Origin: Proteromonas lacertae
Lineage: Eukaryota
Assembly: GCA_002245135.1 (NCBI GenBank)
Contig: NGBS01000583.1
Span: 310,001-374,000 of the forward strand
Length of the DNA: 64,000 nt
Direction of reading: 5' to 3'
The position numbers and the translations under genes were made by a program. Under the pieces are notes generated by a model. That model was not told the origin of the DNA and made no database searches. It worked only from the letters and a program-made list of their open reading frames with translations. Of this stretch, positions 5,667 through 64,000 are shown one piece after another (position 1 is the first letter of the stretch; each line of letters begins with the position of its first letter).

Positions 5667-7725
5667 ATGTATGAATACAAAGAGTATATGATTTAATTAT
5701 TGATCCAATAGAAAATTAGATTCTGATAATTCATATAGAGCAATAAATAGAGATTACAGATGGTTTTCATCATCACCTCAGCACCAAAACGCGTATTATA
5801 GATATTCAGATGAACCAACGGATAAATTACATACATCTCAGCTAAATGAATCAAGCAGAACAATATCGCCAATAATATCTCCGTCAACAAAGAGAAGTAC
5901 CTATTATAATGAAAACAGATCACCAAAGAAAGTGGTATTGCCAGGAAAAATGTTAGAGGATTGTATGTTTATTCTTGTTTGATAAATTTCGTTTAGTTTA
6001 TGATGATAATTTATATGATGCTGATAATAATATCATAAATCAAATAGAAATAACACCAAAAGTTGCTTTTGAAGAAGAAGATTCTATTCCAGAGTATTTA
6101 TTTGATGAAAGAAATGAAAAAGAAAATCAACCTCTAGTTAAATCATCAAATCCAATTCAATCACCAAATAAAAACAAAAATAAAACAAATAATAAAAGTT
6201 ATGATGATGATGAAATACCTTATACATCTAAAGCGAATTTATATAAAGCAATATTAAGAAACAAAGAACTAAAAAGAGATAAAAGGATTGTTGAAAGAAT
6301 AACAGAAATATCTTTTTCATTTTTCATTCTTGATACATAGTTATCTTGATTTCTATATCTTGAAAATCAAGTCAAGCCATTTAAAGGGATAGAAAGACAT
6401 CAGAAAGATTCAAATCGTAAAAGATTACTGAAGGAAATAGAAGATGAAAGGAAAGAGGAAGAGGATGAAAAGAATTATCGTTTTTTAGCTAATCATGTTG
6501 ATCCATTAACAAAAGTAACAAATATAAAGGAACATTATGTAAAACAAAATATAGTAAGAAAGGTGAAAGCCAATAAAAAGTATTATTTTGAATATAATCG
6601 TTCTAGTGCACAAATGATTTTCAAAGAATCGAAATATCCAAATCTCCATGATGTATGGATTTATTCAGTTATATTATATAGAAAGATGAGTATATTAGTC
6701 ATTATTATGATGATGAATTGTTTGATGTTATTGTATATACTTTGTTTTTATATTTTTTTATAACACTTAGAATAAAGCTAGAGAAACTGATGAAGTATTT
6801 ATAATAATAAGAATATTTCATTGTTATAAATATAGCCTCAAAAACCCTATACTGAAGTGAAACCATTTTCATTTGATAATCCAAAATCTAGACACTTCAA
6901 AGAGATCAGAGAGATGGAAGAGAAGAAAGAGAAGCGAAGAAAAAGAGAAGAAGAAAAACAGAAACAGAAAGAGGATGAATTAAAAAGGAAAGAAGAGAAA
7001 GAAATGAAAGCAATGATAAAGATTCAACCTGATATTATACCAATAGCTACAAGGGCATTGAAGAAGAAAATAGAAAAACAATTCGTATTTTTCATATAGT
7101 TGTATAATTGTTAAAATAGGAAGAAAAAGAAATACAAATTAAAAAAGAAAAGTTGGAAGAAATAAAGCAGAAAAGAAAAGAAAAAAGACTAAGAGAATTA
7201 TCAGAGAAGAAGAAAGTGAGTTACAATTTATTAGGTGAATTGGATGAATTATTAATGCAGAAAGATGATTCAGAAGAAGTGAAGAATATATACAATGAAA
7301 AGTTAAAACAGTTATTTACTGAAGAAGTAACAAATAGAGTGAATTATTTCAATAAGAAAGAAAAGAAAAATGTATGCATTTGTTATATTTATAAATAGAA
7401 ACCAAGAAAAGATTTAGATGCTAAATATATTCCTCCAGAAGTATATATATTTCTACTAATATTTCATTAATTATAGTTGAGATATAAGTATAGGTTAATT
7501 GCAGCACAAAATGCTTTGAAGAAGAGAAAAGAAGAAGAAAAACAAAGAAATGATAATAAAGCTAATAAAAATAAAAGTAAAAAGAGTAAAAAGAATGAAG
7601 AATCGAAAGTAGATAAATCTAAAGAAGAATCAAAAAACATTAAAGAAAAATCGGGAGAAGAAGAAAAGAAAGATGATTTTAAAGATGATTTTGATGAATT
7701 TGATGATTTAGAATTTTTAAATTAA
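5667..7725 (+). CDS. FAM161-like protein, paralog 2
   Basis: Colinear with paralog 1 (KPFKG, AN.VDPLTK, PFSFDNP, KYIPPE|LR with a shared intron, KKDDF..LN terminus). Confidence 0.65.
6308..6358 (+). other. U12-type intron, AT-AT termini (51 nt)
   Basis: Donor ATATCTTT, branch-like TTATCTTGAT, in-frame stop inside. Removal gives exact length colinearity with the intronless paralog 1. Confidence 0.75.
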
Positions 7726-7793
7726 TTGATTTAGCGTTATTTATTCTTTTATCCAAATTTTGAAAATGGTGTTCCAAAAATAATCAAGCAAAA

Positions 7794-9144: not shown

Positions 9145-12100
9145 ATGGACTTTGAAAGGTGGGATAAATACAATGATGAAGATGATATTGATATGATAGA
9201 TAGAAACATTGAAGTATAAATACGTTATATAGGAAATTAGAAAGATGAAAGAGAAAGAAAGCTTAAAGAGGATGAAGATAAATTATTAGCTGAGATTAAA
9301 AATAGTCAAGAATGTTTCGAATCAAATTACGAGTTTGCTAAGTATGAAGCTAGTGAACCACAACTAGAATACAAGTATATTATATATGTTAATTGAAAAT
9401 AGTTCTTTCTCAGAAGAGGAACAAAATCTATTGAAAGAATTAGCTAATCAAAAAGTAATTTGGTATGAAGAACGAAGTAAATTGTTTACTGTAATATTGG
9501 GAATATGTAACAAGCTTGCTAAGTTTAGAAAAGAAATAAAAGAATTAAGCCCAAAAAATCATTCAAAACAAATTATAGAAATGTGTAAAAGCATTGAAGA
9601 ATATCTCTCCCAATTTGAAGTATATAATTGTAAAATATAAAATTTAGGAAAAAATCGAAGATGTAAACAATAAACTAAAACAAGAAGATGACAAAACAGA
9701 AAGCAAAGAAGAAAATAAAGAAGAAAAAGAAATTTCATTAAATGAATATAATAGTATGAAACAATATTTGGATATAATCAAACTAATTTACTGTATATCA
9801 ATGAGTAATAGTTATTATGAATTGGAAGGATATAATATATCAATGGAATATATATTGAAAGGTCAAGAAATAGAACCACTAAATAGTGAATTATGGATAT
9901 TAAGATTGAAAATAGCAATAAAATTAGAATGTTATTTATTATGCTCAATTTTGGTAGAAGAAATAGAAAGAATATATAAAAGTGATAATAAAAGAGCAAT
10001 AAAAGAAGCAAAGTCCTATGAAGATGAAATAAATAAAATACAATTTGATGAAAATAAAATAAAGCAGATTAGTGAGAATATACTTAACAAATATAAAAGT
10101 GAAAATGTGTTAGATAATTATAATAATTTATTGTTCTATGCTAAAAGATATTATAATGAAGGTGTTCTATTATGTAATGTATATATATATATATAATATA
10201 ATTATTATTATATATTTAAAATAGATGAATTTTTATAAAAGTTCTTTATTAAAACATAAACTGTCATTGTCATTATTAGATGATGTTAAAATCAGACTTT
10301 CAGAGTTTTATATAAATCATACAGCAAGTAATGATAGTTTAATCGAGAAACATGAGTATCTATTGAGTTTATATGAAGATAATTATATTGAAATGATGAA
10401 ATGTTATAGCGAGATAAATAGTTCTGCCTTATATGATGAAGCTATGAAAATACGTTCATTATGTCTTTCTATTAAATATGATAATGCTTATTTATTCTAT
10501 TATAGTGGGTTAATCTTTTATCAGAATAATTTCTATATTCGTGCTTATTATGAAATGAAAATAAGTCAGAAATATGTTGTATTGAACTGGTGATAAATAT
10601 AAAGATATTGAGGATAATGTGAATAGGATGTTGGATAGAATTAACTTTAAATATCATGAAATATACTCCAAATATTTGAATGAAATGTTTACTACTGAAC
10701 CAAATATATTATTAATATTCACAACAGGTGAAAAGATCAATACTTCTGATAATAATTTACAAAATATTCTACCAATTCAAAACTCTGATAAAACAAAGAA
10801 AGAAAATGATAATCAGCCAACAATCATTACTTCATCTAATAATAATAATAATAATAATATTCCAAAATTCGATCCAGTACAATCACTCAATAATCAAACA
10901 TATTCCTATAGAAAATGGTTAATTGATCATGGAACGTTATTCAAATATCATCGTACAAGTGTTGGTGGTACTTGTCCAGGAAGAGCAACTTTATTAACAG
11001 GTCAATACAGTAAGGTACATGGTGTAAATCAAAGTGACTTTGGAATGAAGAATATCTCTGATAAGTATATGAGATATCTAGAACCAAATGGTGTAGCTAC
11101 GTTAGGAAATTATTTATCAGATAGTGGATATGATACTGTGTTTAAAGGATTATGGAATTTAAGTTATACTACTCCAACTAAGTTGAATAGATCAAGTAGT
11201 GCTACAAATATGAACATTTTGAATAGTGAAAATGAAAAACAAGAACCAACAAAAACATTAGGTATAAAACGAAAGAGCAATTCTGATGGATTAAATCCAT
11301 TTGGTTTTGGCCAATGGGATGATGATAATAAGTTTGAAAGAGGTCCTGAAAGAGATATAGATACAACCAATAAAGTAATAGAATGGTTACAAGATAGAAA
11401 TGCAGTAGTATCAATGGAGAAAACAAGAGGCAGTCAAATTAATCCGTTTCTATTGTGTGTTGGATTATCAGGACCAGGAGATACTTGGGATTTATTAAGA
11501 GGAATTCATAGACAGAATAATGACAAAGGAAATGGTCAATTACCATGTCATGATATAAATAGTAGTTTAATGAAGACATTATACAAGACAAGACAAAGTG
11601 CTTCATTTTATGAGAAGAGAATGAGAGAAACAGATGATTGTATTGGTAATATATTACACTGTTTATTTTCTACACAATTTGCAAATGATACTATTATTAT
11701 TTTTACATCTGATTGTGGTGAAATGCTAGGAAATCATGGTATATATTATATATTTATATGTATTAATAGATTTGTATGGTTGCTGTTATAATGGATATGA
11801 AGAATCAATGAGAATTCCACTGATATTTGCAGGAGGTCCACTCAATTGGTCAAAGCATTTAATAGATAAAGATTGTTATACATCTTCAATTGATATTGCA
11901 CCTACTATATTATCGTTATGTAGTAGTAATGGCAATAAAGATAATGGTAATGGTATTGGTAGTAAAACAACTAGAAAGAGAGTATATATTTAATTGATTT
12001 ATTTATATAGTCTTTATCATTTACTGAGTTGCCTGGATTTCCTGGTCATGATTTGTCTTATTCACTTTTAACAGGAATAAAACCTGAAATAAACTCTTGT

Positions 12101-12696
12101 CATTATTATTCAAATGTGGAAGAACCTTATAGATGTAGTAATTTTGATTATTCTTCTTTGAATATTACTGAGAATAATCAATTTCCCTATTTTGGTAATA
12201 GATTTGTCAGTTTGATAATTGAAAAAGTCAATTATAAGAATAAATTTGAAGAATATAAACTAGTAAGTTATAGTAATGTAAGTCCATTATTTGGTACAAG
12301 AGATTCGACATATGCGTATAAGAATACCAATTGGGAATTAGTATCAATTCCAAACGAACTTACAAATATAGAGAATGATTATGAACTATACAATCTAACT
12401 GAAGATCCTGAAGAGAAACATAATTTGATGAAATTAGTAGGTAAAGAAGAACAGACAAATTATATTTTCCATACACTTAAATTAAAGTTGAGTAAGATTG
12501 AACAGAAATATATTCCTGTATATTTGCTATTGTTATTATTATTATTATTTAGAATGAAGATGATATAGATAAAAATATAAAGGCAATTACTAAACCAAAT
12601 ATAAAACCACAAACCTTTCTATGGAATCACAAAAAGATGATCATTTTTGTTGGAATTCTATCAATTATTATGTCATTCTTTTACATATATAATTAG
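9145..12696 (+). CDS. TPR-repeat + degenerate sulfatase domain + C-terminal transmembrane anchor
   Basis: TPR-like repeats at about 9800-10570; sulfatase motifs PNILLI, PGRATLLTG, IIIFTSD.GE, YELYNLTEDPEEKHNL; ends KKMIIFVGILSIIMSFFYIYN*. The junction near 10580-10626 needs an intron whose exact ends are ambiguous. Confidence 0.7.
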
Positions 12697-16891: not shown

Positions 16892-19800
16892 ATGTTAATC
16901 ATAAGTACATTATTATTTGCAATTTTTGTCTCAGTTACTGTAGCTGAAAAAGGTTATGTTAATGTTGGTATAATAGAGAGAAATAGAAGTGATGCATTCA
17001 TTTCAAATTATGTGAAGAAGTCTAATTTAAACAACTTTTTAGGTTTTAAAATGAATCTATATAGACTAAACAATAAAAGAATATTAAGAGAACAGCCAAT
17101 AAATTACGAGTTAATAATTAATGGCCATTCAGAAGAAAAAGATATATGGTATAAGTATTGTCAATTAAGAAACACTCTTTACATCAGAAATTATGATTAT
17201 TATGAAGAAATTCCAGATTACTGTGAAAATAATGTCTTAATACCTCCCACACTCTCTACTATGGTAAATCAAAGTATAAATATATTGTATTATTGTTATA
17301 GCTATTAAATACTACTTAAATATAGATAAAACATATTCGTTCATGTTAATCACTGAATCACACAACCAACAAATTCAATAAATGGAATTATTTGCTTATA
17401 TTCTCCAGAAATATCGATAAAAATATCAAATATATCATCTATTGATACTTTAAATATTCAATCTAACACAATTTTTCTGATTATCTCCAAATATTCATTA
17501 ATTAAGGATATAAACCCAATTTTGTTTATTACATTATCTTATACAAATGTACATGTTGTTATTTTAAAGAATAATCACCATTTAATATCTCAATTAATGT
17601 CATTGAATAATCCTTTTTCTGTATTTTATTCCAGACCATCATATGAGATGCAATCCAACTATTCTGAAGATGATAATGGTATTCTATTTGCAATACAAGT
17701 TTACCTTTATTCATTAAGAAATACAAAGCCAAATAATATATTGTCATTTTTAAGAAGTAAATCCAATCACAATATATCCAATATTAATGTTACGGTTGAT
17801 AATTGTAATAATATAATAGTTCCAATAACAGTAGAACCAGTAATATCATCATTAGCTATTCCATCATCAAAAGATAAACATGTTAATATGATAGAGAAAA
17901 GTAATGATATTTCAGTGTCAATTGGTGTAATTTATACTAAAGATAAATCTATATATAAACTATCATCAGCTCAGTATCGGTTAGTAAAAGCATCTTTAGA
18001 ATATATGATTAATAACACCACTCTATTTTCATTTAAAGTTAATGTATACTATGAATGGTCAAAAAGCTTGATTGATGTTCGAAAAGCAACAGAAAGATTG
18101 ATAGATTCTCATTCTGTTGATATAATCATTGGTGGAAGTGTTGAACAAGAGAAAGATGATATTATGTATATTATAAATAAGATAGATGAAGAAGTAAGGC
18201 CTTATTTATTTTATACTGGAATGATATATAAACCAGCTTGTGATTCATATTTATTTATTTCAACAGCAACTGTAAATCAATATATCACGTCATTACTACA
18301 TTTTTCATCAATTTTAAATGACCAACTGATTTATATATTCTCTCTAGCAAATGATGACTCTAACTCTGTTTATAATCATTTGTTAAGTGAGGTGTTTGAT
18401 GGATTATCATTATCATATGTTAATCATAACTTCAACAATATAAATGATCATATTGAAGCAATCAATAAAGAGTGTAAATATTCAATAAACTGTTTGATTA
18501 TTATACCAACAAGTATGAATCAAATAAACCAAAAGATAACTGAACAGTTAATAAATGAGAATGTTACAGTTATGACGAATATCAAAATATTGCATTTTGA
18601 TGATGATGTATTATTTGATGATAGTTTCTCACAGAATGATTTAGAAGGTCAATATTTCATTACATCATATTATTACCCATATAAAACTGAGGCAAATAGT
18701 TTACCATTTTATTATAAGCCTTTTTTAGATTTCAAATCTGATGATATTAATTCCTATGTTTTACCAACTACCTTTCTTAGTGTGTTATATGTTACTTTAG
18801 GTATTAGTTATTCCACTTCAAATAATATGACTTACATATCTTCATCATTATATAGAGAACCAATCGCATTTCTTCATAAAACAGTTTATTTAGAAAGATC
18901 ACATTCTACAGCAATGCCTTTTTATCTAATACAAATCCAGAATGAAGAGAAAATAATAATAAATGAATTAACTTCACCTTTATTACCAAATCCATACAGT
19001 CCTTATGATAGTAATAATTGGAAAATGGTATGTCAATTTGATTATGTTTATGATAAATGGAATGATGATTTTATATTATATTTTATATTCTTCATAATGA
19101 ATTTTAAAAAGTCTTTAGAAAATTCATTGAAATTAATACTACCATTACAAATCCATGTTGATGAAATAAATCTGAATATGAAAAATAAAAGATATCAATT
19201 CATTGTAATTGATTCAAATAGAAATGAAAGTTTTATTGAAAATTTAATAAGAAAATATGAGCCAATATCAATTATAGGTTGTTTAGATGAAAGAGAATGT
19301 TATAAAAAAGTATCAAATATAGCAGAAAAGACAAAGACAATATTCTTTTATCCAGATACTATGTATGATAATGAATGCTCTGAATGGGTTATTAATTCTG
19401 GATTGCATTTTCCAACTTACATCAAATTTTTATTGGATTATATTGAAGGATTATCATACACTAATTTAATCATTATACAAAACACAAAGTATATATATAT
19501 AGTTTTATATATATTTATAATGTAGTATTTTACCGTTAGATAATAGTATAATAAAACTATTACAGAATAAAGAACTGAATTACACTACATCATTTTATCT
19601 AGATCATGATGAAACAAATGCATTACCTATTCAAATTAGAACAGCTTTAATATCAATAAATCATTATGTGCAAAATACTGATCTTAATTACATTGTTCTT
19701 TTTGCAGGAAATGAAGCATCAACCAAACAATTAGTTCTTCAGTTAAAGAAGTATAAAATACCATTATCACGTCTATTATTTGTGTTTCTAAACATCAATG

Positions 19801-21461
19801 AACAATGGCTTACAGTAGAAGAAAGACAATCAATTACAAGACATTTGTTGGTAACATATGATGATGGTTTAATAATGTCACACCATTATGGACAAAGTTT
19901 ATTAAACAAAATAATGGCAAAGTATTCTACTTGTAATGAAACTTTTTCTAATGGTATAATTCCTATATTCAATTCATTCATGATTACATATGAGTCTATG
20001 ATATATTTGAACGAGAATTATGAATCATGCAAAATAACAAATCATCTTATAAGAAGTGCAATGTATGAAATAAAATATGATGGTCCTGTAGGAGAAATGC
20101 ATGTTGAATACAATAATATACTCTCTCAGCCATTTCATGTAACAACATTTTCTTTATTAGGAAAAAAGATTAGTTTATATCCAGGTAGTTTATCATTACT
20201 AATACCAAAACCTATAGTTGATGGTTGTTATTATGGTCCAAAATATGAATATCAGAAGTTTGACAATAATTTGGTTATTGGATGTGTAATATCTACAATT
20301 GCAACAATATTATTCTGTATTGGAGTGATTATATTCGTATATATTAACCGTAAGAATCCAATTATAACATCGACAAGTCCAACATTCCTTTATTGTACAT
20401 TGGGTGGATGTATTTATACTTCAATAGCAGCAGCAATGTTTGCAATAGAACCAACACCAAGCAATTATATTTGTACAATAAGAATATGGTTATTAGCTCT
20501 AGGTGTTACTTTTATATTTGCAGTAATATTTACAAAGACTTGGAGAATCAATAAATTGTTTAATAATACGAAGATGATGAAATTGAATTTATCAAATAAA
20601 CTACTAATGAAAATTATTTTATATTTTATGACAGCTGTAGTATGTTTCTTAGTGTTCTTAACATTTGTCAATGAAAGCAAGTATATTTATATTCTATTTA
20701 TATAATATTCCACAATAGATTTTCACCAGAAATTAATGAAGAAAATAGTACAATTGAAATACATTATTATACATCACAATGTACAAATCCACCAGTTCAA
20801 GAGTATATATATATATATATATATATTTGTGATTATTAATGTTATAGTACAATGTTATTCTTATTCTTCATCATTATTCTGTTATATGGAATGTATGTAT
20901 CTTGGAAAGCAAGAAATGCATTTGATAAATACAATGAATCTGGAAGTATATCAATGAGTATTGGTGTTGTGTTTTTCTTCAGTGTAATTATAGTTCCACT
21001 GAATATAATAATAACAGATATGAACTCTTTATTGACAATTAGAGTGTTTGGAATTGAATCTGCAATTGTGTCGTTGATATTGTTGTTATTTGGACGTATA
21101 TTATAACTATTTGTTATTACTCATAGCTAAATATGCAAAGATATATTTGGTTGTAGATAATGAAAGTAGAAGTGAATCTGGAGGAAGTATAAGAAATAGT
21201 GGAAGTTTAAGGTCTTTAAGTCAAAAAGGAAATACTAGTGGAGTATATAAACTAGTACCAAATCAACCAACAAGATTAAGTACAATTAAAAGCAGTCATA
21301 GAAATCAATCATGTTTAGGAGCTAATTTGGAAAGAATTGATAAAAGTTCAAGAATGGACTCAGATGGAACATGTGGTAATGCAAAATGTTGCGTATTAAG
21401 TCCAGTTTCAAGAGGATCTCATCATCCATTAAGTCCAACTCCACATGCTATATCTGAATAA
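16892..21461 (+). CDS. Class C GPCR-like receptor: signal peptide, about 3 type-1 periplasmic-binding-like domains, 7TM
   Basis: RKNPIITSTSPTFL, CTIRIWL, FTKTWRI, YNES and FGPKY are 7tm_3 motifs; IIGC...FFYPDTMYDNECS is UrtA/AmiC-like. One unresolved frame break at about 17360-17381. Confidence 0.8.
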
Positions 21462-22823: not shown

Positions 22824-24923
22824 TCAATTACTTAAATTGAATTTTTTAGAAATAGAATCTTGTCTTTTAATCATACTCTTTATCGTTCTTTCTGAAGCAG
22901 CCATTTGATTCTTTTTAATAACACGTATTTTCTCAAACTCTTCTTCTCCAAACAACTTTGGACCATATTCCTCAACATATTTCTTCATTTTAATAACCAA
23001 ATCATCTCTCAAATCTTTCACAAAGTTATTTCCTTCAGTTAATACCATCGACAAAATCAATGACCAAAGAATTCTCAATTTCTGAATTCCTACTTCAGAG
23101 AATCTTACACCAGCATACATTATAAATGGTTGAATTGATATTAAACCAAAAAATTGATTATATGTGATTTCTTTATGCCCTAAAAATACTCTATAACTAG
23201 AATAAATAGCAGCATATAAAACAAAGAAAAATGGGAAAACTATAACAGAAGCTGCCATCTATAAAGCAATATTAATATAATAACAAAAATACTTTTGTTG
23301 ATAACATAGCATCTTTACCTGATATTTTAACTAGACTCTCTTCTACATTCTTTTTAGCATTCTTCTTACCTAAAAATGAACAAATATAACCAGGAATCAA
23401 CATCAAAATACCACCAGGTAATGCAAACAAACCTAATAATAAAACATACACTAGATTCTGTATAATCATTGACAATTTCACTTTTAATGGAATATAAGCC
23501 CCATCTCTCACCATACTGTCTCTTATACCAAATGCATTCAATATTTTACGATATCTTTCACATTCTTCTTTAAATGCAATTAATTCAGGATATTCATTAA
23601 TCTTTTGATATGCTTTTGAGAAGTTAATTGTAAGCTGGACCTTATCTAATAAATTCAAATTAATATTCTTAGGAGAATATATTTGTCTAGCAATCCATAA
23701 TAAATCGTAAGTAGTTTCACCTCCATACATTTGTACAATAACATTCTTTAAACATAATTCAATATGTTGTAGTAATTGCGTGACTATTTCTTTCTTTGAT
23801 TCACTATCTTGACTGTATTTATCAACAATATCCTGAGATATTTCTATTGGATCACCGACAATGACTGTTGCTCGACTTCTGAAACGATGACCGTTAAAAT
23901 AATTCATTCCTACAGGTAATATAGTGATCTTTTTATCAGGATACTATCATTTATAATAAATTACAAAGTATATATATACTAATGATTTAAAACCTAATGG
24001 AATTACAGCACAACCTGCTTTCAATGGCAATAATTAAAATATATATTAAAGATTCATTTTATGTATTATTATATAAAATGATATTGTTGTTCTATCATGC
24101 GAACCACCTTCTGGGAATATACCTACTACTTGATCATTATTTAAACTAGCATAAACATGTTTGAATAAATCTGAATGGTTTAATTTTGGTTGAGTTTGAT
24201 ATTCTATATCTGTTATTTCATCATCAGATACTTTGTCTTTGAGTATTATTTCTGTATCACTTAATACTTCTTGAATTGCTATTTAATAAATAAAAATTAA
24301 ATTGATAATAAATATACGATATTCTTTCTTTTCAATAATTAAGAAATCTCTTGTTTTTAGTGTGGTGAAATTGGTATTTTTACCTGTTACTTTTTCACCT
24401 TCCACTGATATTGTTCCTACTCCCTTTTTAATATGATCCATTTCACGATCTATTGGGATAATTGAATTCATTCCTCTCATAAAGAAACCAATCACTGGTG
24501 CTTCAAGTGAAGCTTTTGCTCCTATCAGCCATAACTTCCGTGGGAATAATTGACTGAGTAATATTCCATCTGCAAACTGATTTCCATGTGGAGCAGCGAT
24601 TACAAATACAGGCCCTTCGTCTGGTACTTTTTCAACTCCTTGTATTTTGACTTCTACATATACAGTATAATAATGCTAAAATACCTCTGAAGAATAATGT
24701 AATTTCAATCCAATAAACCATATTGATCAGTCTTTCAAGTATTACATCGCCCATTAATGGATTAAACATAATTATAATCATAAAAACTATAAATATTTTT
24801 AAATTATTCATCTATACTAATAAAAATAGCAGGCAATGTCGAACCAATTTTTTCTAAAATGTTTCCAAGATGTACATCCCAAGAAGTCCATGTTTCGATT
24901 ATATAACTCTTAATTGAGTCCAT
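22824..24923 (-). CDS. Glycerol-3-phosphate/DHAP O-acyltransferase (Sct1/Gpt2 type)
   Basis: AAPHGNQFAD, IFPEGGSHDRTTLLPLKAG, PVGMNYFNGHRFRSRA and SLVKISGKDA motifs. Confidence 0.9.
24034..24084 (-). other. U12-type intron, AT-AA termini (51 nt)
   Basis: Donor ATATCATTT, branch-like ATCTTTAAT. Removal restores the conserved PEGGSHDRTTLLPLKAG; no GT-AG solution seen. Confidence 0.75.
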
Positions 24924-24995: not shown

Positions 24996-25068
24996 TCCCA
25001 TGTAGTCTAGGTGGTTAGGACGGCTGGCTTTCACCCAGCCGACCCGGGTTCGAGTCCCGGCATGGGAA
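24996..25068 (+). tRNA. tRNA-Glu (anticodon TTC)
   Basis: Acceptor stem TCCCATG/CATGGGA, anticodon arm GCTGG-CTTTCAC-CCAGC, T-arm GGTTCGAGTCC, downstream T-runs. Confidence 0.97.
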
Positions 25069-25073
25069 GTTGA

Positions 25074-28000
25074 TTATTTTTTAATTTTTCTTTTTTTTTT
25101 TCTCTTAAAAACAAACAGCAGAATCATATTATGAAAGTTTAGATAAGAAGCTTTTCCAACTGGATCAAGTATTGATATGATTTGGTTTGCTTTCATACTG
25201 ATTGTTTCTGATGAATCATTTCTACAAATCTGCATTATTAATACCAATTTCTTTACAAATTCAGAATCTTTGATGATATCAGTACAACTTTCAATCAAAT
25301 TTAGGAAATATATTGAACTATTGTTCAATCTGTAAGTTGATACGCATTCGTCAATATAACCTACAACCAGTTTCAAATAAATCAATATATCTATCTTTTC
25401 AACCTTCTTAGATGAGAATAGATACTTCAACAGTTGATAAAATGAAACTGTAATCAATCTATTCTCGCTTATCTTTATTATTCTAATCGACATTTCTATT
25501 ATCTTTTTAAGTATTTGTGACTTGATTTCTTGTTGATCAGTAATAATCTTCAACAGATTTACAATCAATGAATTCTCTGTTTCTATAATATGATCTATAT
25601 TGTTATAATTATCTTCAATATTATTGGATATTTCCATTAAAGTCCTTTCCACTTTTTGAAAGGAGGAGAAATCTAATGCAGCTTGATCTATTAGCTTCTT
25701 ATGAGCAACTTGTTCATTATATTGTTCTTCAGTTAATATTGGCAAAGGCAATAATGTTAAGTCATTATTCATATAAGAATCAATACTTGTCATTATTGTG
25801 CTTCTCACTATTTAAAATATAAAATATAAAATATGGTAATAAATATACATTGAACTTGACATGAATCAAGGAATTCTATCAACTCAATAATTATGTCTAA
25901 ATAGTATTCAGTTTCTTCTTTTATCATTTGAGGTAATGTTGATAATAACAGTGTATAAATATGAGAATAGAATAACAATAATTCTAAGTTAGAATCTGTA
26001 ATATTTTGATTCTTGAATTCTTGATATAAAGATAAGATTTTATTGTAATAGAAATTAATCACATTTGTTCCTAATTCTTTATTACTCTCAAATATCAATG
26101 ATAAAATAGGAATTTCACATTTGTCAATCATTTTATTAGCTACATAATCTATTTGATCTTTACTTATGGTTTCTAAGTCACTTATATTTCTAATGTCATT
26201 TATTGTATGGTTTTTACGACCAACAGTTTGAGGGTTCAATCCATATCTATGACAGTAATACAAATATCGATTAGAATTCAAATATTCAGCATTGAATATA
26301 TCATTATTTACTAGCGGAATTACATAATCAGAACCCATTTTATTGTTATTACTATTATCACTATTCTCTTTGCTGTTATTATTCTCTTTATTCGATTCTT
26401 TGTTATTCTGTATTGATAGTTCAATATTTGCTTCAAAATCTATTTTTTTAATCAATTCGTGATTATTCTCATGGATTATTTGATTATACAACTTTGGAGG
26501 ACATATACTCTTGTTTAATAGAATACTATACAGTTTCTTTCTAACAGTAACACTAGGATCACACAGAAACTGAATGAAATAATTCAACACAGTTTGCTCT
26601 GGTAATAAAGGTATAAGAATCTCATACAATATAATCGATATTAATCTTTCACTCTCATTGGAACTAGATGTTTTATCTTCAAAGTCTTTTATTGTTATTG
26701 AAATAATTGGTGAATTCTCTGGTAATTTGTTGAATAATATTTGTAACTGATGAGCAGCAACATCAGCAATTGGCGAATTAAACTCTAAACTGTTAATATA
26801 ATCAATGATTGATTGTATTATTTCAGTAATATCATCAATCTTATAATCAGATATTAATATATGTAAAATATCAAAGATAATAGTTTGAACAGGAAATGAT
26901 GATGTTGGTAATAACTCTACTAATTGTTCAATTATTTCCTATTGATAATATATTTAGTAAAAATTAATAATTATACTTGAATATTCTCTTTTTCTAACAA
27001 ACTAAACATACTTGTTTTACGAATAGATTTTAAGAATGTCAAATAGTAATACAATCCTCCACTTGTTGTCTATTAATAAATAATAAAGATATAAATATAC
27101 AGTTGTTACTAAGTTATATAGATTCTTAGCATATAACAATATTTCATTATTATTAATGTTGAATAATATTGTTAAACCAAGTATTAATCCTTCTAAATCC
27201 CATGTTAAAGTACTTAAATTCAGTTTCTTAATAGATCCATATATTTCATTTATCATATTGGTAATTACATTAACTGTGATCATTTTGTTTTGAAATGATA
27301 AATATCGAAGTTGAGATAATACTACAATTGTGGCTCCTTTAAAACCTTTTTGATTTCTTAATTTTTGAATATAATATTCAATTTTATCCATAGTTTTAGG
27401 GTTAAACTTAACATCTTTGTATTTCTCATTGATTATTTCATATATCTTATTCCAATTATCTTCATTTACATCTGTAATAGATTTGATTATTCTATCATCT
27501 AGATTGGGATTTTCATTAACATCTAATGAATAAGTGGATGATATTAGATTGAATAATTCATTTATATTACTACACGAATGATCAGCATGAATTGATTTAG
27601 TAATTATTGAAACTTTATCAGTATATAAATCAAATAATGACTTTTGTTTTACATCAATATTCTTAATATCAATTTGATTCCTTAAATTTTCATAACTACA
27701 CATCATAAATGGCAATATTGAATATAATATATTGTATTGATCTTCACTTGGAACATATGGGAATAAATACAATATCGAATCTAACACATAATTCTTAATA
27801 TCATTTGAAGGATGTACTAATACTGGTAATAGAATATCATAAAGTATTGACATTGAATATTCTTCGTTTGTGAGGTATTTGATTGATTGTATTGATGTAT
27901 AAACATAATATTCATATTGACGATATGTTAGTGACGATAAAATTGGATCTAAAGTGTAATTATTCTTCAATGATAAGATATCAGCTTTTAAATAATCATA

Positions 28001-30962: not shown

Positions 30963-31315
30963 ATGCCTACAGCAATAATAAAATCGGTAGATATGGAAAA
31001 GCCTATGGAAGAAAAAGCTATATCAACAGCTAAAGCGGCCTTAGATGAATGTAATACACCAGATGTATAGATTTTTATTATATATAACTTATATAGGAAA
31101 TTGCTCAATATATGAAAAGCACATTTGAAAATACATATGGTCATTTGTATGAATAATGATAATTATTTGAATAGATGGCACTGTTTTGTAGGTCGACATT
31201 TTGCTTCATATGTAACTCATGAAAAAGGTAAATACATGTATAATTATCAAAAATAATCATGCTTAGATACTTTTATCTTGGTCATACTGGTATATGTTTG
31301 TTTTCTTCTGGATAA
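30963..31315 (+). CDS. Dynein light chain, LC8 family (divergent)
   Basis: Spliced AIIKSVDM...EIAQYMKSTFENTYGHLWHCFVGRHFASYVTHEKGKYIYFYLG...LFSSG; three introns; absent from the ORF track. Confidence 0.92.
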
Positions 31316-39619: not shown

Positions 39620-42600
39620 ATGTTTAATTCGAACTATTTATTAGTATTTATATTATGGATGTGCTATATTGGCCGGTCATTACAAAATGATATAACTATA
39701 TTTTACTCTAGTGATTATTCAATTACTTGTCCTTCAGACGCTGATATAAGTTTTACTTGTGAACAAGTTGATTCGGATTTACTGTCAAAGGTTAAAGGTT
39801 TATCTACTACTCCACCCATCATATTAGTGTTGCTTTATAGTAATGTAAATAGTGATGTTATTTCTGAGATAAGTGGTAATAGTGTAGTTTATTTTTCGTT
39901 TATTTTCGTGCCACAACAAACTGTTGTAGATAATCGTTTAACCCTTTCAGTTCCTTGTGTTACAGATGATATTATTTATTGTATATTTATATATGTTAAA
40001 TTTATATAGCTATTGATTATTTCCTATTACAGGAAAAGTACAAATTTGTTTTATTCGAAACTGGACTTGATCAATCAGTTCAAGATTCAGTTAAATCATA
40101 TTGTGATGCACTTAGTGTTAAAATAACCATATTAGATAATATAGGTAGTATTAATTGTGTAGATTGTGTTGTAATATTTTACAAATATGATGGTAGTGTC
40201 AGTATACCATCAGCTCCTACTTATTCAGTGGTATTTATTAATCAACCATCATTACCACCTTCATTTCCTTATTATTACTTATCATTAACAAATAAGTCAA
40301 AGAATCAATATGATGTAATTATGTATAATATTATACATATAATTATTAATTAATATGATAATAGAGAAGATTTTATAAAAGAGTGGAAAAAATCATTGAC
40401 AGATGGAAGTAGTGTGTTGGTGGGTAAATACTTTACTCCTTTACAATTATTCAATAGTACTGTGATTAATTTCATAAATAAGAAAGTAATTTATGATAAA
40501 TACATTATGAAATATGAATCTACATCATCATCTACAGTAGTTGAAGCATCTCACACTAGTTACTATAATCCAGTGAGAGTGTATATAAATCAATACACGA
40601 AATATGAACTAAACAATTATTATGTTGGGTTTATATGTGAATCAACATATAATAAGAAAGAATATTTATCATATCTTGTTACATTAAAGTATTTTAATTA
40701 TCGTTCGAATAATGAAAAGAGAGTTTCTAAATTGAGGTTATTGTTCAGGAAATATAGTAATATTGATGAATTAAAGACAATATTTGAGTCAAATCAAATT
40801 GGTTCATTTATTATATTTGATGATTATAACAGAATCACTGAAATAGCTAAAAGTATATTATATATATTTTTTGTATTAGAATATCCAAAATTATTTTTCA
40901 TAACAGATTCAGAAGCATTGCCAAAAGAAGAATGCAATTCAAATGTTTATCATTCTTCAGTATTAAGATTTCATGATTTCATTTATTCAAATGAGGATCC
41001 ACTTCATCCTCCTGATGTTGTTATTTATAATGAATATGATATGTATATTAAAATATACTTATTAAATACTTATAGAGATAATATTAAAATATATCAAATG
41101 GTATGTGGCACAATGTTTTGTAAGTCACAATTTATTACATATGAACAAGCGATGAAAGATACAACTGGTAGTTTTAATGTTACAGATAATGGTAAATTGC
41201 TATTATTATTAAATAATGAAGATCAAATAATCAAATTTCATGATAAATTAGGAGGTAATCCAAAGGATATTGAAGTTTACCATACAAGAGTAGTTAGAAG
41301 TAAAAAAGAATATGTATGCTATAGTTATAGTTTTTATTTTATTAGTTGAAAGGCCATATTGCTATTGTACCATTTATTGTTTATGGTTATCATGATTATT
41401 TTAAAGATATAACAGGAGATAGTCAAGCAGAGTATTATTATGGTAGAGAATATACAATATTAAGAATAGTGAAGAATATATATGAAGTATATATATATAT
41501 ATATATATTAATGCTATTATTTTTATAATAGAATTTTCTTACAACAAATGAAACAAGTTATGAATCAATAAGAGAGTATATATACATATATATTATGTTT
41601 TAGAAAGTTAATATCTCAAATGTACTGTAAACCAAATTATTGTTTATTTCCTCTAATTCATTTTACTGTATGTTTAATAGTATGTAATACATTGTTTAGA
41701 TTGATAAAACTACATCTAATATAGTACAAGGAGATAAAGTTCCAGTGTATTCTTCTTCTGGTTGGTTGGATTGTTACTGTTATGATGATAATAATTATGT
41801 CACACTTGGAATAATGTATGAGAATAAAGAATATTATAAACATAAAATACTTCCCAGTTTAAGTAGTATTACTGTTGAAAATACTTTATTATTACCAATT
41901 ATTAATGTAAAATTTTCAACAACAGAAATAAATGAAACAATGAATGTGATGTATGAGAAATTTGATGTAAGAATATTTCTTGTTTCAGTAGAATATCTTT
42001 TTTCTTTTTTATAAAATATTTTTAAATGATTATATTTTCTTTAATAAAATATACAGATATTGTTAGTTATTATGAAGAATCTTTCAAAAGTTGGTTGAAC
42101 AATAAGGATGTCATTTTTATTGATATAAAAACTACGAATGTGAAGGATTGTGATTATACTAATTTGCTTTATTATTCAATTCCATCTATGTTATTATCGT
42201 ATTATAATCCATTAATGTTTTATAATTACACTTTATATTTGATATATGATGAGTATTTTTATCATTATTATTATATTTTATAGTATATCTAATGCTGTTT
42301 ACAAGCAATATATTGAAGAAATAAAACAGTTAGGTTTATCATATACAGGAATAGAATATAAAACTTTATCTACAAGTATACTAGGTGATGCAGCAAAAAC
42401 AAGGTATTTTTACATTTTAAATGATAATAAATTGTCTGATTTTTACGAATTTGTATCAACTCATCCAACTTATATTTTTATATCATGTAAAAATGAATTT
42501 CCTGTTACCTCAATGAAATTGCCAAATCTTCTTATTCCACAACTTATTCCTGATATATTTATATCAGATAGACAGATTGAGTTGTTAATATATTACAATT

Positions 42601-45600
42601 CACCAGTGGATGTTACATTGAAACTATATTCTGCTATGAAGAATTATTTATATGGTAGAAAGTTATATGGTAATAAAATTGAAAGGATATATGAATATAT
42701 GAAATTTTCCTTGTTAGAAAGTTATTATTGTATATATATATATATATATAAATATAATTGTATTTTAGTCTACCAATTTACTTATGTTAATAATTTTGTT
42801 ACAGATTATACTCTTTCAAGAGTATCATCATTAGGAATTGCCTTTGAGAAGATCGAGAATAAAGATTTGGCTTGTAGCTATTATAATTCAAATTATGGTG
42901 AAATGAATATTGGAATTATATATTACATATTCGATCAAAATGATGACTTAGATGCTATTAATTATATGTTGAGTATTTTGTATGATATCAATATAAATAT
43001 TCCAGTTAATTTGTTTTTTGTATAAATAATTATGTTATATATTTTTTTTATTAATAGAAACTACAACCAGTGAAATGTGCAAATTCTGCATGTGTATCTG
43101 ATCTATTAGGAAGTGATGATAGTACTTCAAATTTTTACATTCTTTCTTTATCATTTTCTTATACCAGATCCAATAGTTATTTGTTTAAGGTGAAGAATTT
43201 AAATGAACCATCATGCACCAATAATATGTATTTATTTGTTCTATATAATGTATAGAATTGATTTTTCTCCATCAAGTGCACATACATTTGATTATATATT
43301 TAAGAACGCTATAAAGACACATGCTAATTATATCATATTCTATTCTACAGATTCATATATGGATACTATTAAGGCATTGATAAAGAAGTACAAATATGAA
43401 CCTATAAATTATATTGAAGTTACTGGTAAACATTACTCTGTAATATTGAATTTTGCATTAGTAAACTTACCAAAAGGTGGATACATTTTGGATTATAGCA
43501 ATATTGAAGATATGAAGAAGTATATTGAACAAATTGAATCGTTAGTTACAAAATATAGTGATTATAAACACCTTATAATGAATTATACATCTAATCTTGA
43601 TATAGAGTTTAAGTCTCAACATCAATATTCATATTATATTAGTCCATTTCATGTGAAAGATAAAATACTTAGGCATACAAAGAGAATATCATCTTTACTA
43701 TCAATTGCTGCAATAGATGCTATATATGAATGCTTAAAAATGTTTGTTTTTGATAATAAAAGAGTTTATAATCACCTTATTAATAACAATGTTAATACTG
43801 ATATTGGTATTATAAAAATCAATACAATAAATCATATTGAATTAGGAGTATCAATCAGTTTAGGAGATAAGATAATTATTGATATAACTGAACCACTATC
43901 AAATGCTAGGTTTTATTATATGTTTGATGAATATGATTATGGAGGTTTATTTAATGTAAAAGTTATTGAAATTGGTTTTATACATAATATATATGGTGAT
44001 GAAGTTGATCGGGAATTTATACATTTAGATTTTGAAACTTCAATTATTTCTAGATTGAATCATGATTATAAGTCAGAGTTAGTGATAAAACCGAAGATAT
44101 TTTTAATTCATAGTATTTCTGAATTAGAATTTAAAGCAAACGATCCACTGTATTATCTTGCTGGAAAATATCTTTTTATTTATTAGTATATATATCAAAT
44201 CTAAATTGTTTCTTTAACTTATGTTTTTTTTTACTACTGCTATTAGTGAGTTAGAAACTGTGTTTAATGAGAAGAGCAATAGAGTATTATATTTTACAGG
44301 CCAATATGTTGAAGATGAATGCTCATCAAATATACTATTTGCTGGAGGTAATTATGTTTCAATTGTATTTTATCTTATTTATTTGTTTCTGTTCTAATAG
44401 ATCAGTAGTATTACAGATTTTCTTAGATCATTTCAGGATGGTTCAATTAAAATATATTTTTCATCAAATCAACCCTCTCTAAGAGAGTATGCACATTTAG
44501 TATATAATACATTCCACAACTACAACTATGATGTTTCTATATCATCTTATTCAGTTGATATGAATGATGTTTCATCTGCTGCAAACATGTTTTGTTATCG
44601 TGTTGTTTCGTCAAGTGATGAATTGGTGTTTATCAGTTTTCTTATAGCTGAAGAACAAAAACATTTCTTTGAAGAATTATCAACTACGTCATGTAATCTC
44701 TTTACTGTTTTATCAGTAACTCCAAGCTATGAAAAACTATATGATTTTAAGGTAGTTCCTAATACATATTTCATTGGTAGATCATCTCCAGATGAACAGA
44801 CATATAATGATATATATTTAACTATAGAGTTTGTTTTGTATTTATTACACAATATTACTTATAAATTAACACCAGAAGAAATGAAATTAATGACAAGTCA
44901 AAACTTTATTGAAATGAATTATCTTAAACATATTGTTATAAATGATGATGAATGGTATTTTGAAAATAATAATAATGTTCATTTACCAATTAGTTATTAT
45001 TATTATGATGGAAAGAATTATTCTTTATACAATAAACCACTTATTAGTTTCACACCATATAATAATTCAAGCCCTTATGTTTGTTTACCATTTGGTGGAG
45101 AAAAATTTGAAGATAATTCTATTGATATTCCAGTGTTTTTCAATTTATCAGGTGATAATGTAATAAGAGAAAGATTGATTTTAGATGCAATTTCAACAGG
45201 TTTTGATTATCTTAATAAAGTTCAAAATGGAATAGCCAAACGAAGAGTGAGACATAAGTTGTATGACATTTCAAAACTTAATGAATATTATGAAAATCAT
45301 AAGAATGAACAAATTGTGTTGTTTGGTGGTGATACATATGACGATTTTAATACTATTTATAGGTTAATGGAAGGTAAAAATAATATTTTGTATTTAGAAA
45401 CATCTGATATGGTTGGTAGAAGTTGTTATAATAACGTTATCTTTACAGGATTAAGATTACCAGTTTATATTGAATCTTTAATGTCAGAATTTATATATAG
45501 AAAATATACTTCCGTAGTAGCTTATATTGATGAATCAACATATCCAGTTTCTGATTTTAATAATATTATGGAAAAAGCTTATGCTAATGTTGTGAATATA

Positions 45601-51045: not shown

Positions 51046-51185
51046 TTATATGTTTGTGTATGTTTTTTACAGAATATTCTTGGGAATTTCTTGAAATGTC
51101 CATAATTTTCGAGAATTTTTTAAATAGGATTTAATTCAATACTTAGTATTCTAGAAATATCTAATTTTTGATAAACTTAAACCTA

Positions 51186-52195
51186 ATGAAATACACATCA
51201 ATTTTTGTTATTGTCTGTTTAATTGGTCTTGGTATAACTTTTCTATTCATCTTGAAATAGCTTTTTCAGCACCAAACTCAGATGATTTATCTCAAGCATA
51301 TAACGCCGCTCAATCAGCAGCACTAGATGAAGGTCTATTGATGCGTCTTAATAAAAAATACCCCAGTGTTGATGGTAGAGCTGTTTTCACTTGTATGCCT
51401 GATAGAGGACTTTACACATTTCCAGATGCTTTATTAGCTACAGGAGCTTTGAAAGAAGTTTTAGATGTATTTATTGTATTTTTATCTTATAATTAGACAA
51501 ACAAATTGTTGGTAGGAGGATTACAATTCAACACAACTGATGGTGATTATTTCCAAGATCCTCCAGTTGGATTTTGGCCAGAATATCTTGATGCAGTTGT
51601 TGCTAAATTAAACGAATTCTATAGACCATTAGGTACTGACGCAAAGATTCAAATAGTAAGAAAATATTACAAATCATCAGATGCTACACTTGATGGATTA
51701 GAAAATGGTGAAGTTTATCTTACTGAACCATATTATGTTCTTGGTGCATTTTACAAGGATCAACCAAGAATAGAATCAACTCGTTTAGCTTGCACTTCTA
51801 TGGGATATGAAAGCAATTTTGTAGTTGCTGATGCTTCAGGCGTTAGTACAACTGCTGAATTATATGACTACATTGAGAAGAAAGCAACCAATAAAAAAGT
51901 AGTTACAATGTCAACTGGTGATTTTTATGCTGCTGAATCTTTATTACCACCAAACACTGACAATTTCGTTGTTTCAAGTTATGATGATGTTATTAAAGCA
52001 GTGAAAGATGGAACAGCAGCAGCTGGACTAACTTCTGGAATTATTACAGGAGATGGAATACACACATTTAAAAGTGGAATTATATCTCCAAGAGGATCAA
52101 TGTTTTTGAAACAGAGTCCTTGTTTGCCAAAAGCTGCATCTACAGCAACAGTCGCTTTAGCATTGCTCATTTTTACTCTATTATTAATATTGTAG
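51186..52195 (+). CDS. Secreted, probably GPI-anchored type-2 (family 3) solute-binding-protein-like protein
   Basis: Signal peptide MKYTSIFVIVCLIGLAFS; LKEVLDTNKLLVG, PVGFWPEYL, DVIKAVKDGTAAAG; hydrophobic C-terminus; two introns. Confidence 0.7.
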
Positions 52196-60075: not shown

Positions 60076-63000
60076 ATGGACCAGCTTCAAAAAGACCTAA
60101 AACAGGTGGAGGATTATTTAGGAATAAAAGTATATCCAAAACGAGTGGCTACTCTGATGAATACTTCACATAGTGACAAGATAAATGCTTTTCGGTCTAG
60201 ATTACCAGTATTAATATTTTATAAAATATATTAGACAATAAAAAAATATGTAGTTAAGAGGAGAATGTGTTTGGATGTTGCGTATTTCTGTATTTTTTTA
60301 GTTTATAGCAATAAGATATATAACATCAAAAAAACAGATGAACTAAACATAATAATAAACGAATATAAGGATAATGTACTTCCAGATGGAGTTGATGAAG
60401 AGGATGTGAAAGATTTGACGACAAAGATAAAAGATATGTTTTCAGAAGATAATATACCAATTTTAATAAAGTTTTATGAAGATAAAATGTATTTTAATTC
60501 TATTTATTTTGATAATTTAGAAATGATTTTCACAATCACTATAAAAGCTGTAATTTTTATGGTGCATCGATCAGTGATGATATAAAAGATTATTATGAAA
60601 CTAAAATGAAAATGGAATTCAAAGCATGTACTGAAGTTCCACTGAAAGAATGAGTTTAATGAGTTATATAGAAACATCTTTACAATTGAATCAGTAGAAA
60701 GAATTGAAAAGATACAATATAATGAAGATAATTTAAAATATATAGATTATATTGATCTATACAGAAAAGAACTGAAGATGTTGGATTGTAGTGTAAATAC
60801 AGGAAGAACACCATATAATTTATCTCGTAAAAGTTTTAACAATGTTCACACATCTCCAAAAGATGCTTATAATAAGTTATGTCATGATTTCCCAATTCAA
60901 GGAACAATATAGGGAAATATTTAAATGTGTAGAAGAAGCATATGAAAATGTTATGGAATCGATGAAGAATGATGATATAAGAAGGAGGTATAATAGATTA
61001 AATGAGTTTAAAATTAAATTACCACCTACACAAAAGCAATATGATGAATTAGAAGGAATAAGAAAAGAAATTACTGAATTTAGTGATGAATTAAGTAGAA
61101 TAAAACCTCCTGATGGATATTGTAATTATAAAAATGAAGTGTATAAATTGTAAAATCTAATAAATAGAGAATCATTTCAATCAAAAATAGATAGAGTAAA
61201 GAGAAATATAAGAGAATCATTATCATTTTTAAAAGATATGTTTGATAGATTTGAGAACGAGAAGAGAATATCTAATGAAGCTTCAGAAAATCCTACAAAA
61301 TATAGTGATAGAGAATATCAAGAGAAGATTGATCGAATCAAAGAAGAAAAGGAGGCTTTATCAGTATATTATATGATTCTATATTGGGAATAGATATTCT
61401 ATGGATATTATACCTCCATCACACAACTCTTAAATACTATGAAGAACATATATCCAAATAGTAAAAAGAATAAAGAGTTCTTTCCTGAACATAGCAATTA
61501 TTTGAAGAAAACTACTGCAGAAAAGATATTCAAAATGAATGATAAAAGCTATAAGAGTATATATGAAGAAGGAAATGATATTAATTCTTTACTAAGAGTA
61601 TATTAATATTTTATCATATTACATAGCAAAGATTTGAAGTTATTAATAAGATATATAGGGAATTGTATAATTATATTGCATTATATATATATATATATAT
61701 ATCTTTAATAGTGAAGAAATGAAAAAATCATTCAACCATTTAAAGAATCAACCAATCAGAATTCTTGATTGGCAGGATCTACCTGAGAAATATGCAAAGT
61801 TAGAGGATAATATAAATTCTCTAAAGTCATATAGTAGAATAACAGAGCAAAATTTGAATCAATTATATAACGATTTGCTTTATCTTACAAAAAGAGTAAA
61901 TGAAAAAGAAGAAACAATAATAAAGGCAATAAATACAAAATTAGAATCAATTAAGAATTTGTTGTATAATAATAAGTGAATATATACTTATACAATAGAT
62001 TATCTGTTAAGAATAAGTTGGAGTCAAATAGTTCGTCTATTGATACATCTGTATATGTAAATATTTGTAAGGAAGTAAAAGATTGGTGTGATACACATTC
62101 AACTGAGAATACTAACTATGATGAAGCTGATGTAATTCAAGCTAAGATAAAAACTACAGAAAAGGAATTAAGAATTAGTATACAGATCAGTGAATTGAGA
62201 AGCGAATTGTATTATATATATATCACTTTTATCTTAATAATAGTGATAAATTAAAGAATGAAGTTAAACAAATTAATGATATTGATGTTAAAGAATATAT
62301 TTTTAACATTGAAGATAATGAAAGAGAATTGAATGAGATGAATGTGAAAACAACAACAATAAAAAAATGTAACGAGTGTATGGAAAGAATAGAAAAAATA
62401 AATAATGATCTTCATTTGTACATTAAAAAAATAAGGGATATAAAAAAGGATTTTGATTCATTACATTCAATCTAGTATGTCTATTTGTATTATATTGATA
62501 AATAGTAATGAATATGATAATCAGCTGAAATTATGCCCAAATAATTACAGTTTAACTGATTATCGTAACTTATTAGAAGAAATGAGTCAGTGGATTGAAA
62601 AGCACACTATCTATAATTGTACAAGTGAAGAAATCAATAAAATGATTAGAAGATTAAAAGAAAAAAGCGAAACATTACCATCAGAAATAGATAAATTGAA
62701 TGAAATTAATGATTTAATCACTCAAATCAAGTTTTCAATATCACAATTGAATAATAGGATAAAAGAGAATAACAAACAATACGACTTATCTGATTTTGAA
62801 GAATCTTTTAAGAGATTATATAAATCTGTTGGGAAATTGAATGTGAACAAGTCAGACATTGATAAATGTTATGAACTACTATCTAGTATTGATGATGAAA
62901 ATGAAAAATTACTGTCTTATTTGAAAGACAAAGATACAATTTCCTCGATTATTAATTCTATTGAAGCAGTGATTATATCATGTGAATCTGATTTGACTGA

Positions 63001-64000
63001 AGGCAGATACAAATCATTACAATCATTTGAGGAGAAAATAAGCACAGTTTCTGGTTGGATAAAGAAGAATCCTTTGAAGAGTAAAACTGCGCTATCAGAG
63101 TATTCAAAAAGGTCAGAAGAAATAGAAAGAATAAGAAATGAAATGGATTCGCAATTGGATGTGTTGGATCATCAAAATAAGATTATTAATAAATTGTATA
63201 TTTATTGTAAATTAAAATTAATTATTCAAAATAGGAATGGAATGAAAAAACAAGAAGAATATAGAGATTGTGTTTCTTTTGTTGAATATGTAAATATAAT
63301 TATCGATAAGGCTGGAAACATAAACAATTTGACTGAAGTAACAAAATTATATAATGAACTACCTAGATGTTTTAATCTACATCAGCAGATAAATAACAAT
63401 TTGTATATAATATACAATGTTTTAATATGATTTAGAGAAAAGTACAAAGTATTATATAACAACTTAATTAAGATGATGAAAAAGAATAAAACTAGCTACA
63501 CAGAAATTGATAACTTTTATCAAGAAATTGTATCAAAAACTAATCCTTTTCAGTTTAAAACAACAGCATTATCACAATTCATAGAAGTTGATCAAAGATT
63601 CACAATAATGTTGATAAAATTAAATGAAAAAATAGATGAATATAGATATTACCTTCTAAATTCTATTTATACAACTCAAATAAATGTATTCACAAGCGAT
63701 TTAAAAGCAGTGAATAAATACTCTGATGATTTGCTTCGATTTAATTCACAATTAACAATGAGACAAACGACAATGTCAACGATGAGGAGAACTATTAGTT
63801 CATTAAATGTAGAATCATTATATTCTTCACTTAGAATATTTAATAGATTATATGTATTATTTCTATTACTATAAAATAATTATAATGTATATATAGATTA
63901 TATGGAAATCTTCATTTGATGAAATAGTAAATAATATACAGTGTTTACTTTCCAATTCTCATTCAAATTATAAAATATATAGTAAATATGTATCCTTTCC
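60076..64000 (+). CDS. Long helical-repeat protein with Hsp70-lid-like W-containing repeats; runs off the window; contains frame breaks
   Basis: Spliced ORFs; repeats EVKDWCDTH, EMSQWIEKH, TVSGWIKKN each followed by a K..ELE-like helix. Confidence 0.5.
63990..64000 (+). other. Probable U12-type GT donor (GTATCCTTT); intron cut off by the window end
   Basis: Consensus minor 5' splice site at a codon boundary of the open exon. Confidence 0.55.

Follow-up and report, generated by a model that had tools for sequence, protein, structure and literature searches.

Likely U12-type introns with AT-AC and non-canonical AT-starting ends in a 64,000-nt window of Proteromonas lacertae

Introduction

A 64,000-nt stretch of DNA deposited as Proteromonas lacertae (assembly GCA_002245135.1, contig NGBS01000583.1, positions 310,001 to 374,000, forward strand; hereafter the window) contains four genes interrupted by short segments that begin with AT. 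These raise the question of whether the segments are introns of the minor (U12-type) spliceosome and, if so, whether such introns are unusually dense here. An earlier sequence-only reading had proposed six such introns among roughly 140, with relaxed ends and a size class of their own. Our analysis indicates that five segments (Table 1) are short introns likely removed by the minor (U11/U12/U4atac/U6atac) spliceosome of an AT-rich protist. The evidence on density and on boundaries is drawn from this one window, from homologs and from published papers.

Detection of the introns and their signals

A small gene parser, written for this analysis and self-trained on the window, called 130-131 GT-AG introns. 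Of these major introns, 128 were well scored, with lengths of 25-47 nt (median 32 nt). Almost all were of the form GTAT...TAG, and their donors carried A at +3 in 129/131 and T at +4 in 127/131. The five U12-like introns form a separate size class, as had been proposed, at 51, 51, 62, 67 and 73 nt. All five carry C at donor position +5, which was present in 1 of the 128 major introns.

The donor pattern ATATC(C/T/A)TTTT is present in all five introns, and the donor 10-mer is identical at 6308, 41993 and 44168. Compared with the extended donor [G/A]TATCCTT, as given in the Physarum preprint (bioRxiv 10.1101/2020.10.12.336362), one intron matched at 9/9 positions and four at 8/9, each of the four differing at +6. 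The proposed donor positions were borne out once the strand was added (24084 and 37957 lie on the minus strand), and each of the five introns restores the reading frame, in agreement with the sequence-only reading.

In a motif run, any [AG]TATC[CTA]T[TC] site was allowed to open an intron with a free 3' end, at a cost of -6 or -10. At -6, exactly five introns were chosen from 109 donor-class sites, with a gain of 59.3; at -10, four loci were kept and 44168 was lost. The control, using 30 permuted motifs, gave five calls in total: one was a slid copy inside the 24084 intron and four fell at a single spot with a gain of at most 2.1. When the parser was run free of any motif, its three calls all fell on candidate introns (24084, 37957 and 41993). 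Neither the donor-class nor the motif-free parser found further non-canonical introns in the window.

A TCTTTAAY/TCTTGAT box was present in four of the five introns, with a weaker form in HID1, as had been claimed, and in 3/128 major introns (Fisher p = 1.4e-5, for a pattern taken from the sequence-only reading and for five introns that are longer than the major ones). In the set of 36 donor-class sites that lie within genes on the sense strand, 4/5 introns and 1/31 of the other sites were followed by the box. The donor together with a TCTTTAAY box was observed three times in the window, against 0.03 expected. The donor 10-mer alone was not enriched in the window (9 observed, 6.8 expected), so the evidence lies in where the donor falls. 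The predicted branch A lies 9-17 nt from the 3' end in the five introns.

A GT-AG-only parser cut the glycerol-3-phosphate acyltransferase (GPAT), HID1 and class C G protein-coupled receptor (GPCR)-like genes each in two, and forced an 87-nt intron at 6308 and a 61-nt intron at 44186. The prediction that such parsers would split these genes was thus correct for three of the four, the fourth being shortened. The sixth donor, GTATCCTTT, was rejected: the frame stays open through it to the end of the window, and 49 of 100 shuffles hold such a site, which leaves five introns and not six.

Table 1. Positions of the U12-like introns and of other features of the window. Minus-strand introns are referred to in the text by their higher coordinate.
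Feature	Position	Strand	Length (nt)	Ends	Phase	Gene	Signals and remarks
U12-like intron	6308..6358	+	51	AT-AT	0	FAM161-like (5667-7725)	box TCTTGAT; predicted branch A 6349
U12-like intron	24034..24084	-	51	AT-AA	0	fungal-type GPAT (22824-24923)	donor with A at +6; box TCTTTAAT; predicted branch A 24046
U12-like intron	37885..37957	-	73	AT-AC	2	HID1 (37127-39495)	perfect ATATCCTTT donor; weak branch box TTTTAAT
U12-like intron	41993..42054	+	62	AT-AC	2	class C GPCR-like (39620-51045)	box TCTTTAAT; predicted branch A 42044
U12-like intron	44168..44234	+	67	AT-AC	2	class C GPCR-like (39620-51045)	second AC at 70 nt; box TCTTTAAC; predicted branch A 44217
Rival intron overlapping the 44168 intron	44186..44246	+	61	GT-AG		class C GPCR-like (39620-51045)	frame-restoring; GT-AG-only parser score -0.9
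GTATCCTTT	63990..63998	+					window edge; uncounted; chance level 0.63 per window
FAM161-like paralog	332..2051	-				3' part of model 332-3538	no intron at 6308-equivalent codon
Class C GPCR-like gene, smaller	16892..21461	+
tRNA gene	24996..25068	+					TTC anticodon (Rfam alignment)
LTN1-like gene	25074..30867	-					convergent with the tRNA gene
Dynein light chain gene	30963..31256	+
CFAP95/107/68-like gene	31414..32089	-					resemblance in 31417-31920
Solute-binding-family-3-like gene	51155..52195	+					directly after the larger GPCR-like gene
Sulfatase-domain gene	10586..12696	+

Intron boundaries at the individual loci

Homology fixes the length of three introns (6308, 24084 and 37957). 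The 6308 intron contains in-frame stops. In the register of the Pfam profile FAM161A_B, residues 14-52 of the upstream exon correspond without gaps to profile positions 37-75, and residues 3-60 of the FAM161-like paralog correspond, also without gaps, to 37-94; the five residues left are those given by the 51-nt AT-AT cut. A hidden Markov model (HMM) of the paralog only tied the 51-nt and 60-nt forms (49.6 each), and pairwise scores were likewise undiscriminating. The sole nearby GT-AG rival, of 87 nt, scored -14.7 and costs 12 amino acids. An exon of the paralog (amino acids 436-560) spans the equivalent amino acid 485, and another intron position is common to both paralogs.

The 51-nt GPAT intron scored 117.7, compared with 102.1 for the next end, using 17 homologs. 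The motif spacing was identical in 77 of 80 metagenome loci. In the remaining three, a GT-AG intron sits two bases 5' of the position equivalent to 24084, which is a near-coincidence and not a shared site. All GT-AG rivals delete at least 12 amino acids of conserved motif, and with the donor fixed the intron ends in AA.

In HID1, the 73-nt intron ranked first among 16 open ends (140.2 versus 136.7; HMM of 114 homologs). Across the junction, the protein matches Pfam Hid1 at 344-456 and then at 457-576, and the spliced model is 698 amino acids long with no stop. Open reading frames (ORFs) of HID1 relatives at 87% and 75% identity begin at the same methionine just past the junction; this would fit a shared interruption there and offers indirect support.

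Two introns lie in the larger class C GPCR-like gene. At 41993, the parser run without a splice motif opened its interruption at exactly this position. Joining the flanking exons supplies a hydrophobic N-terminus to the seven-transmembrane (7TM) part, which alone has none, and the GT-AG rivals are at least 116 nt long and cost at least 18 amino acids. The acceptor is not fixed by homology. For both this intron and that at 44168, paralogs and repeats were too diverged for colinearity to settle the reading.

At 44168, the variants could not be told apart with a repeat-based HMM (15.5-16.1 bits). The first 18 nt, over which the two readings disagree, scored +2.9 as intron and -2.4 as coding sequence, and the GT-AG rival is longer than all 128 well-scored major introns. 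The AT-AC intron is favoured by the length of its rival, by the intron-like score of those 18 nt, by the donor it has in common with other loci and by the TCTTTAAC box.

Another reading is that some of the loci are not introns of this kind: they could be errors of assembly, distinct genes or pseudogenes (41993) or, at 44168, an ordinary GT-AG intron. Frameshifts lacking an intron signal do occur at 17358, 60649 and 60909, with more near 52940 and 53820, and the 61-nt GT-AG reading at 44186 is available. However, a small indel cannot yield an insert of 51-73 nt within the conserved motifs of GPAT, HID1 and FAM161, and at an estimated one error per 10 kb of coding sequence (54,197 coding nt), errors at both of the odd ends would be very unlikely. 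We regard this explanation as improbable.

Spliceosome class and proposed mechanism

The U12-type identity proposed for the introns was supported. A competing view of their class accepts them as real introns but assigns them to the major spliceosome, acting on relaxed ends (U2-type AT-AC or similar); the U12-like signals would then be left over from conversion or have arisen by chance in T-rich sequence. The major donors, GTAT, are one base from ATAT; U2-type AT-AC introns exist (24/610,067; PMC1557818, Table 1); and the branch boxes are degenerate. On the other side, the C at +5 and the T run are found in all five introns, the near-invariant TAG end of the major introns is found in none, and the box frequency and the size class set them apart. 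A U2-type AT-AC donor equals the major consensus in all but its first base, from which the C at +5 departs. We consider processing by the major spliceosome unlikely.

For the minor spliceosome, the donor would be read by U11 and U6atac and the branch box by U12, given the pairing we infer; the C-to-T changes in the box would form G-U pairs unless the small nuclear RNAs (snRNAs) have changed. The 3' end would be measured from the branch point: the first A-N whose end is 9 nt or more beyond the branch A would be used, with the last base irrelevant. Such distance-based choice would explain the AT-AA and AT-AT ends without a new mechanism, and the longer size class could reflect the room required by the U11/U12 particle. 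All five introns end at the first A-N that is 9 nt or more beyond the predicted branch A, and each time this first A-N is in frame; the 9-nt threshold was set after seeing the data, and the probability by chance is approximately 0.4% for a fixed threshold and a few percent as set. U12-type 3' end choice has been reported to depend on the branch-to-3' distance, with an optimum of 11-13 nt (PMC3584512). For P. lacertae, Table S5 of PMC12129017 records domains of minor-spliceosome proteins, namely U11/U12-25K (2), U11-48K-like CHHC (4) and RBM41/RNPC3 (4); they bear on the window to the extent that its lineage assignment holds.

Several observations weigh against the assignment to the minor spliceosome or against single boundaries. 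The window contains no minor snRNA (Rfam identified one tRNA only). The donor consensus is perfect in only one of the five introns, and the boxes match TTCCTTRAC at 6, 6, 6, 7 and 8 of 9 positions, a score of 6 being reached by 31/128 major introns, so that on the full consensus their excess over background is modest. Judged on homology only, the boundaries in GPAT and HID1 may slide by a few bases; the slid HID1 forms score 1-2 points higher, although they have no recognisable ends, and tyrosine is rare at the HID1 junction column (3/77 parsed homologs; 37/114 were not parsed). The GT-AG rival at 44186 is compatible with protein homology. The assembly also has reading frames that break where there is no intron signal, so a restored frame says little by itself and the homology tests carry the weight. 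Finally, a HID1 tree of 88 sequences gave no usable placement, and the lineage rests on gene content.

Density of the introns

The five introns represent 3.8% of 133 introns in the window (95% interval 1.2-8.6%). The earlier estimate of about 4% stood for the window, and its count of about 140 introns is in line with the 130-131 GT-AG calls; the sixth donor did not stand. Blastocystis ST1 is reported to have 346 minor introns among 35,412, or ~1% (Gentekaki et al. 2017, PMC5608401). Compared with this, p was 0.010, and 0.041 without 44168, before allowing for the choice of a window flagged for the trait and for two introns in one gene. A density above that of ST1 is suggested but not established.

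These could instead be ordinary minor introns at a Blastocystis-like 1%, with the window a lucky draw, an explanation that bears only on density and is compatible with U12-type splicing. At the ST1 rate, one window in roughly 100, each with 133 introns, would contain at least five; this window had been singled out for the trait, one gene holds two of the introns, U12 introns are reported to cluster on genes (PMC1557818), and the 95% interval starts at 1.2%. Against it stand the p values of 0.010 (against 0.98%) and 0.003 (against 0.71%). Furthermore, GT-starting minor introns, which would raise the count, could be under-counted, as they are hard to see where the major donors begin GTAT too. 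We give this explanation an even chance. The genome-wide minor fraction is probably 1% or more; 4% is not established. We noted that the major donors equal the first four bases of a GT-type U12 donor, which could ease switching between classes.

Comparison with known minor-intron systems

The introns resemble those described for Blastocystis ST1, a member of what is probably the sister lineage, where 77% of minor introns are AT-AC and the mean length is 42 bp (Larue and Roy 2023, PMC10639083). In both, they are very short, mostly AT-starting and longer than the 30-nt major class; phase 0 is not avoided (49% in ST1; 2/5 here) and positions are little conserved. They differ from ST1 in length (51-73 nt versus a mean of 42), in density (3.8% in the window versus 0.7-1.0%), in the non-AC ends of two of the five introns, and in a donor +6 that is often T or A.

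Similarities were also found with Physarum polycephalum (Larue, Elias and Roy, bioRxiv 10.1101/2020.10.12.336362), for which the preprint describes +6T donors and a degenerate branch site that precedes the 3' end by 9-12 nt. AT-AA makes up 27% and AT-AT 8% of the non-canonical U12 introns of Physarum, and its introns lie in young genes at unconserved positions and are missed by GT-AG-only annotation. However, the Physarum set comprises 20,899 U12 versus 154,299 U2 introns with RNA-seq support, whereas the present five come from sequence alone. Its perfect donors are mostly GT (3021 GT, 627 AT), whereas all five here start with AT, and the box TCTTTAAY of three introns here differs from TTTGA.

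Among the non-canonical U12 ends of animals, AT-AA and AT-AT are the most frequent (PMC10639083). They occur in both animals and plants, and swap with AT-AC between human and mouse (PMC1557818). The difference lies in their share, which is 2/5 here compared with ~4-5% of minor introns there (PMC1557818, PMC10639083; p = 0.015 at 4%, with small numbers and a 4% base that includes GT-starting introns). The sequence-only reading had placed the novelty in density and relaxed ends; this is weaker than stated, since short AT-dominated introns are known from ST1 and both non-canonical ends are known. No report of minor introns in Proteromonas was found in the literature searched, although the genome paper (Zahonova et al. 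2023) may discuss them, and the genus is absent from one supplement of PMC10639083; such introns are probably undocumented for this lineage.

Age of the introns and significance

Conservation of position in distant eukaryotes, which is typical of the ancient U12 class without defining it, was not found. None of the 80 GPAT loci has an intron or a U12-like donor at the GPAT position. HID1, FAM161A and FAM161B are not on the human/mouse minor-intron gene list of PMC6717393, on which three of three control genes were found. The testable positions, judged by these comparisons, look lineage-specific and not ancient. Recent gain would give this picture; loss elsewhere could too.

The prevailing view is that minor introns are ancient and that new ones hardly ever arise, Physarum being the one clear exception. 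Recent gain in Blastocystis has been raised as an open possibility calling for more genomes of the clade (Larue and Roy, PMC10639083). Two of the five introns lie in a receptor family expanded in Proteromonas (7tm_3, 116 in P. lacertae; PMC12129017). It is possible, if doubtful, that the window reflects a second large-scale creation of minor introns after Physarum, making up 2-4% or more of introns, nearly all AT-starting, in young genes such as the expanded class C GPCR family, with the 3' end set by branch distance and the last base ignored. A dense, AT-starting, lineage-specific set in the probable sister lineage would make the question of minor-intron gain testable. It would also be the highest density outside Amoebozoa named in the text of PMC10639083, where Basidiobolus is given as 0.554% and ST1 as 0.7-1.0%. 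With a genome-wide value near 1%, the finding would do no more than widen the range of a known system to a modest degree.

Gene content and lineage

The window has 26% G+C, compared with a reported 27.0% for the P. lacertae genome (PMC12129017), and is packed with eukaryotic genes. It encodes two FAM161-like proteins, two 7tm_3 receptors, HID1 and laminin B (Pfam). Table S5 of PMC12129017 lists none of FAM161, class C GPCR, HID1 or laminin IV for eight Blastocystis genomes, against P. lacertae counts of 3, 116, 2 and 2, respectively. As the window holds all four, the Blastocystis frame in which the introns had been placed is probably wrong, and the gene content points to a Proteromonas-like flagellate as the probable host. 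The loss of flagellar and signalling genes, a Blastocystis trait, is not seen in the window. The nearest named HID1 proteins are from Pythium and Aureoumbra (36-37% identity), with Diphylleia as tree neighbour. The Blastocystis downstream element TGTTTGTT was exact at 2/23 gene ends and all models have ordinary stops, which was uninformative.

Relatives of the window proteins fall into two groups, at 84-87% and 46-75% identity, on dozens of public contigs. Their ORFs end where the introns would start, and they represent a widespread AT-rich protist clade.

Other features of the window

Frame breaks with no intron signal were noted at approximately 17358 (+), 52940 (-), 53800-53950 (-), 60649 (+), 60909 (+) and 10590 (+), and are most likely single-base assembly errors. 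Those near 17358, 52940, 60649 and 60909 were considered as further introns and rejected, as they look like small indels. Across one break, the sulfatase domain is apparently joined to an upstream coiled-coil/repeat region, representing either a fusion or two genes.

Both class C GPCR-like genes carry tandem periplasmic-binding-protein repeats before the 7tm_3 domain, at least five in the larger model (~3,600 amino acids) and two in the smaller. The solute-binding-family-3-like gene has a hydrophobic C-terminus, and its ESM Atlas score of 0.87 makes it a lead only. The tRNA gene and the LTN1-like gene's stop codon are 5 nt apart. The resemblance to CFAP95/107/68 (ESM Atlas 0.94) is below the recognition mark and is likewise a lead only; this gene adjoins the dynein light chain gene, and the two are further signs of a flagellate.

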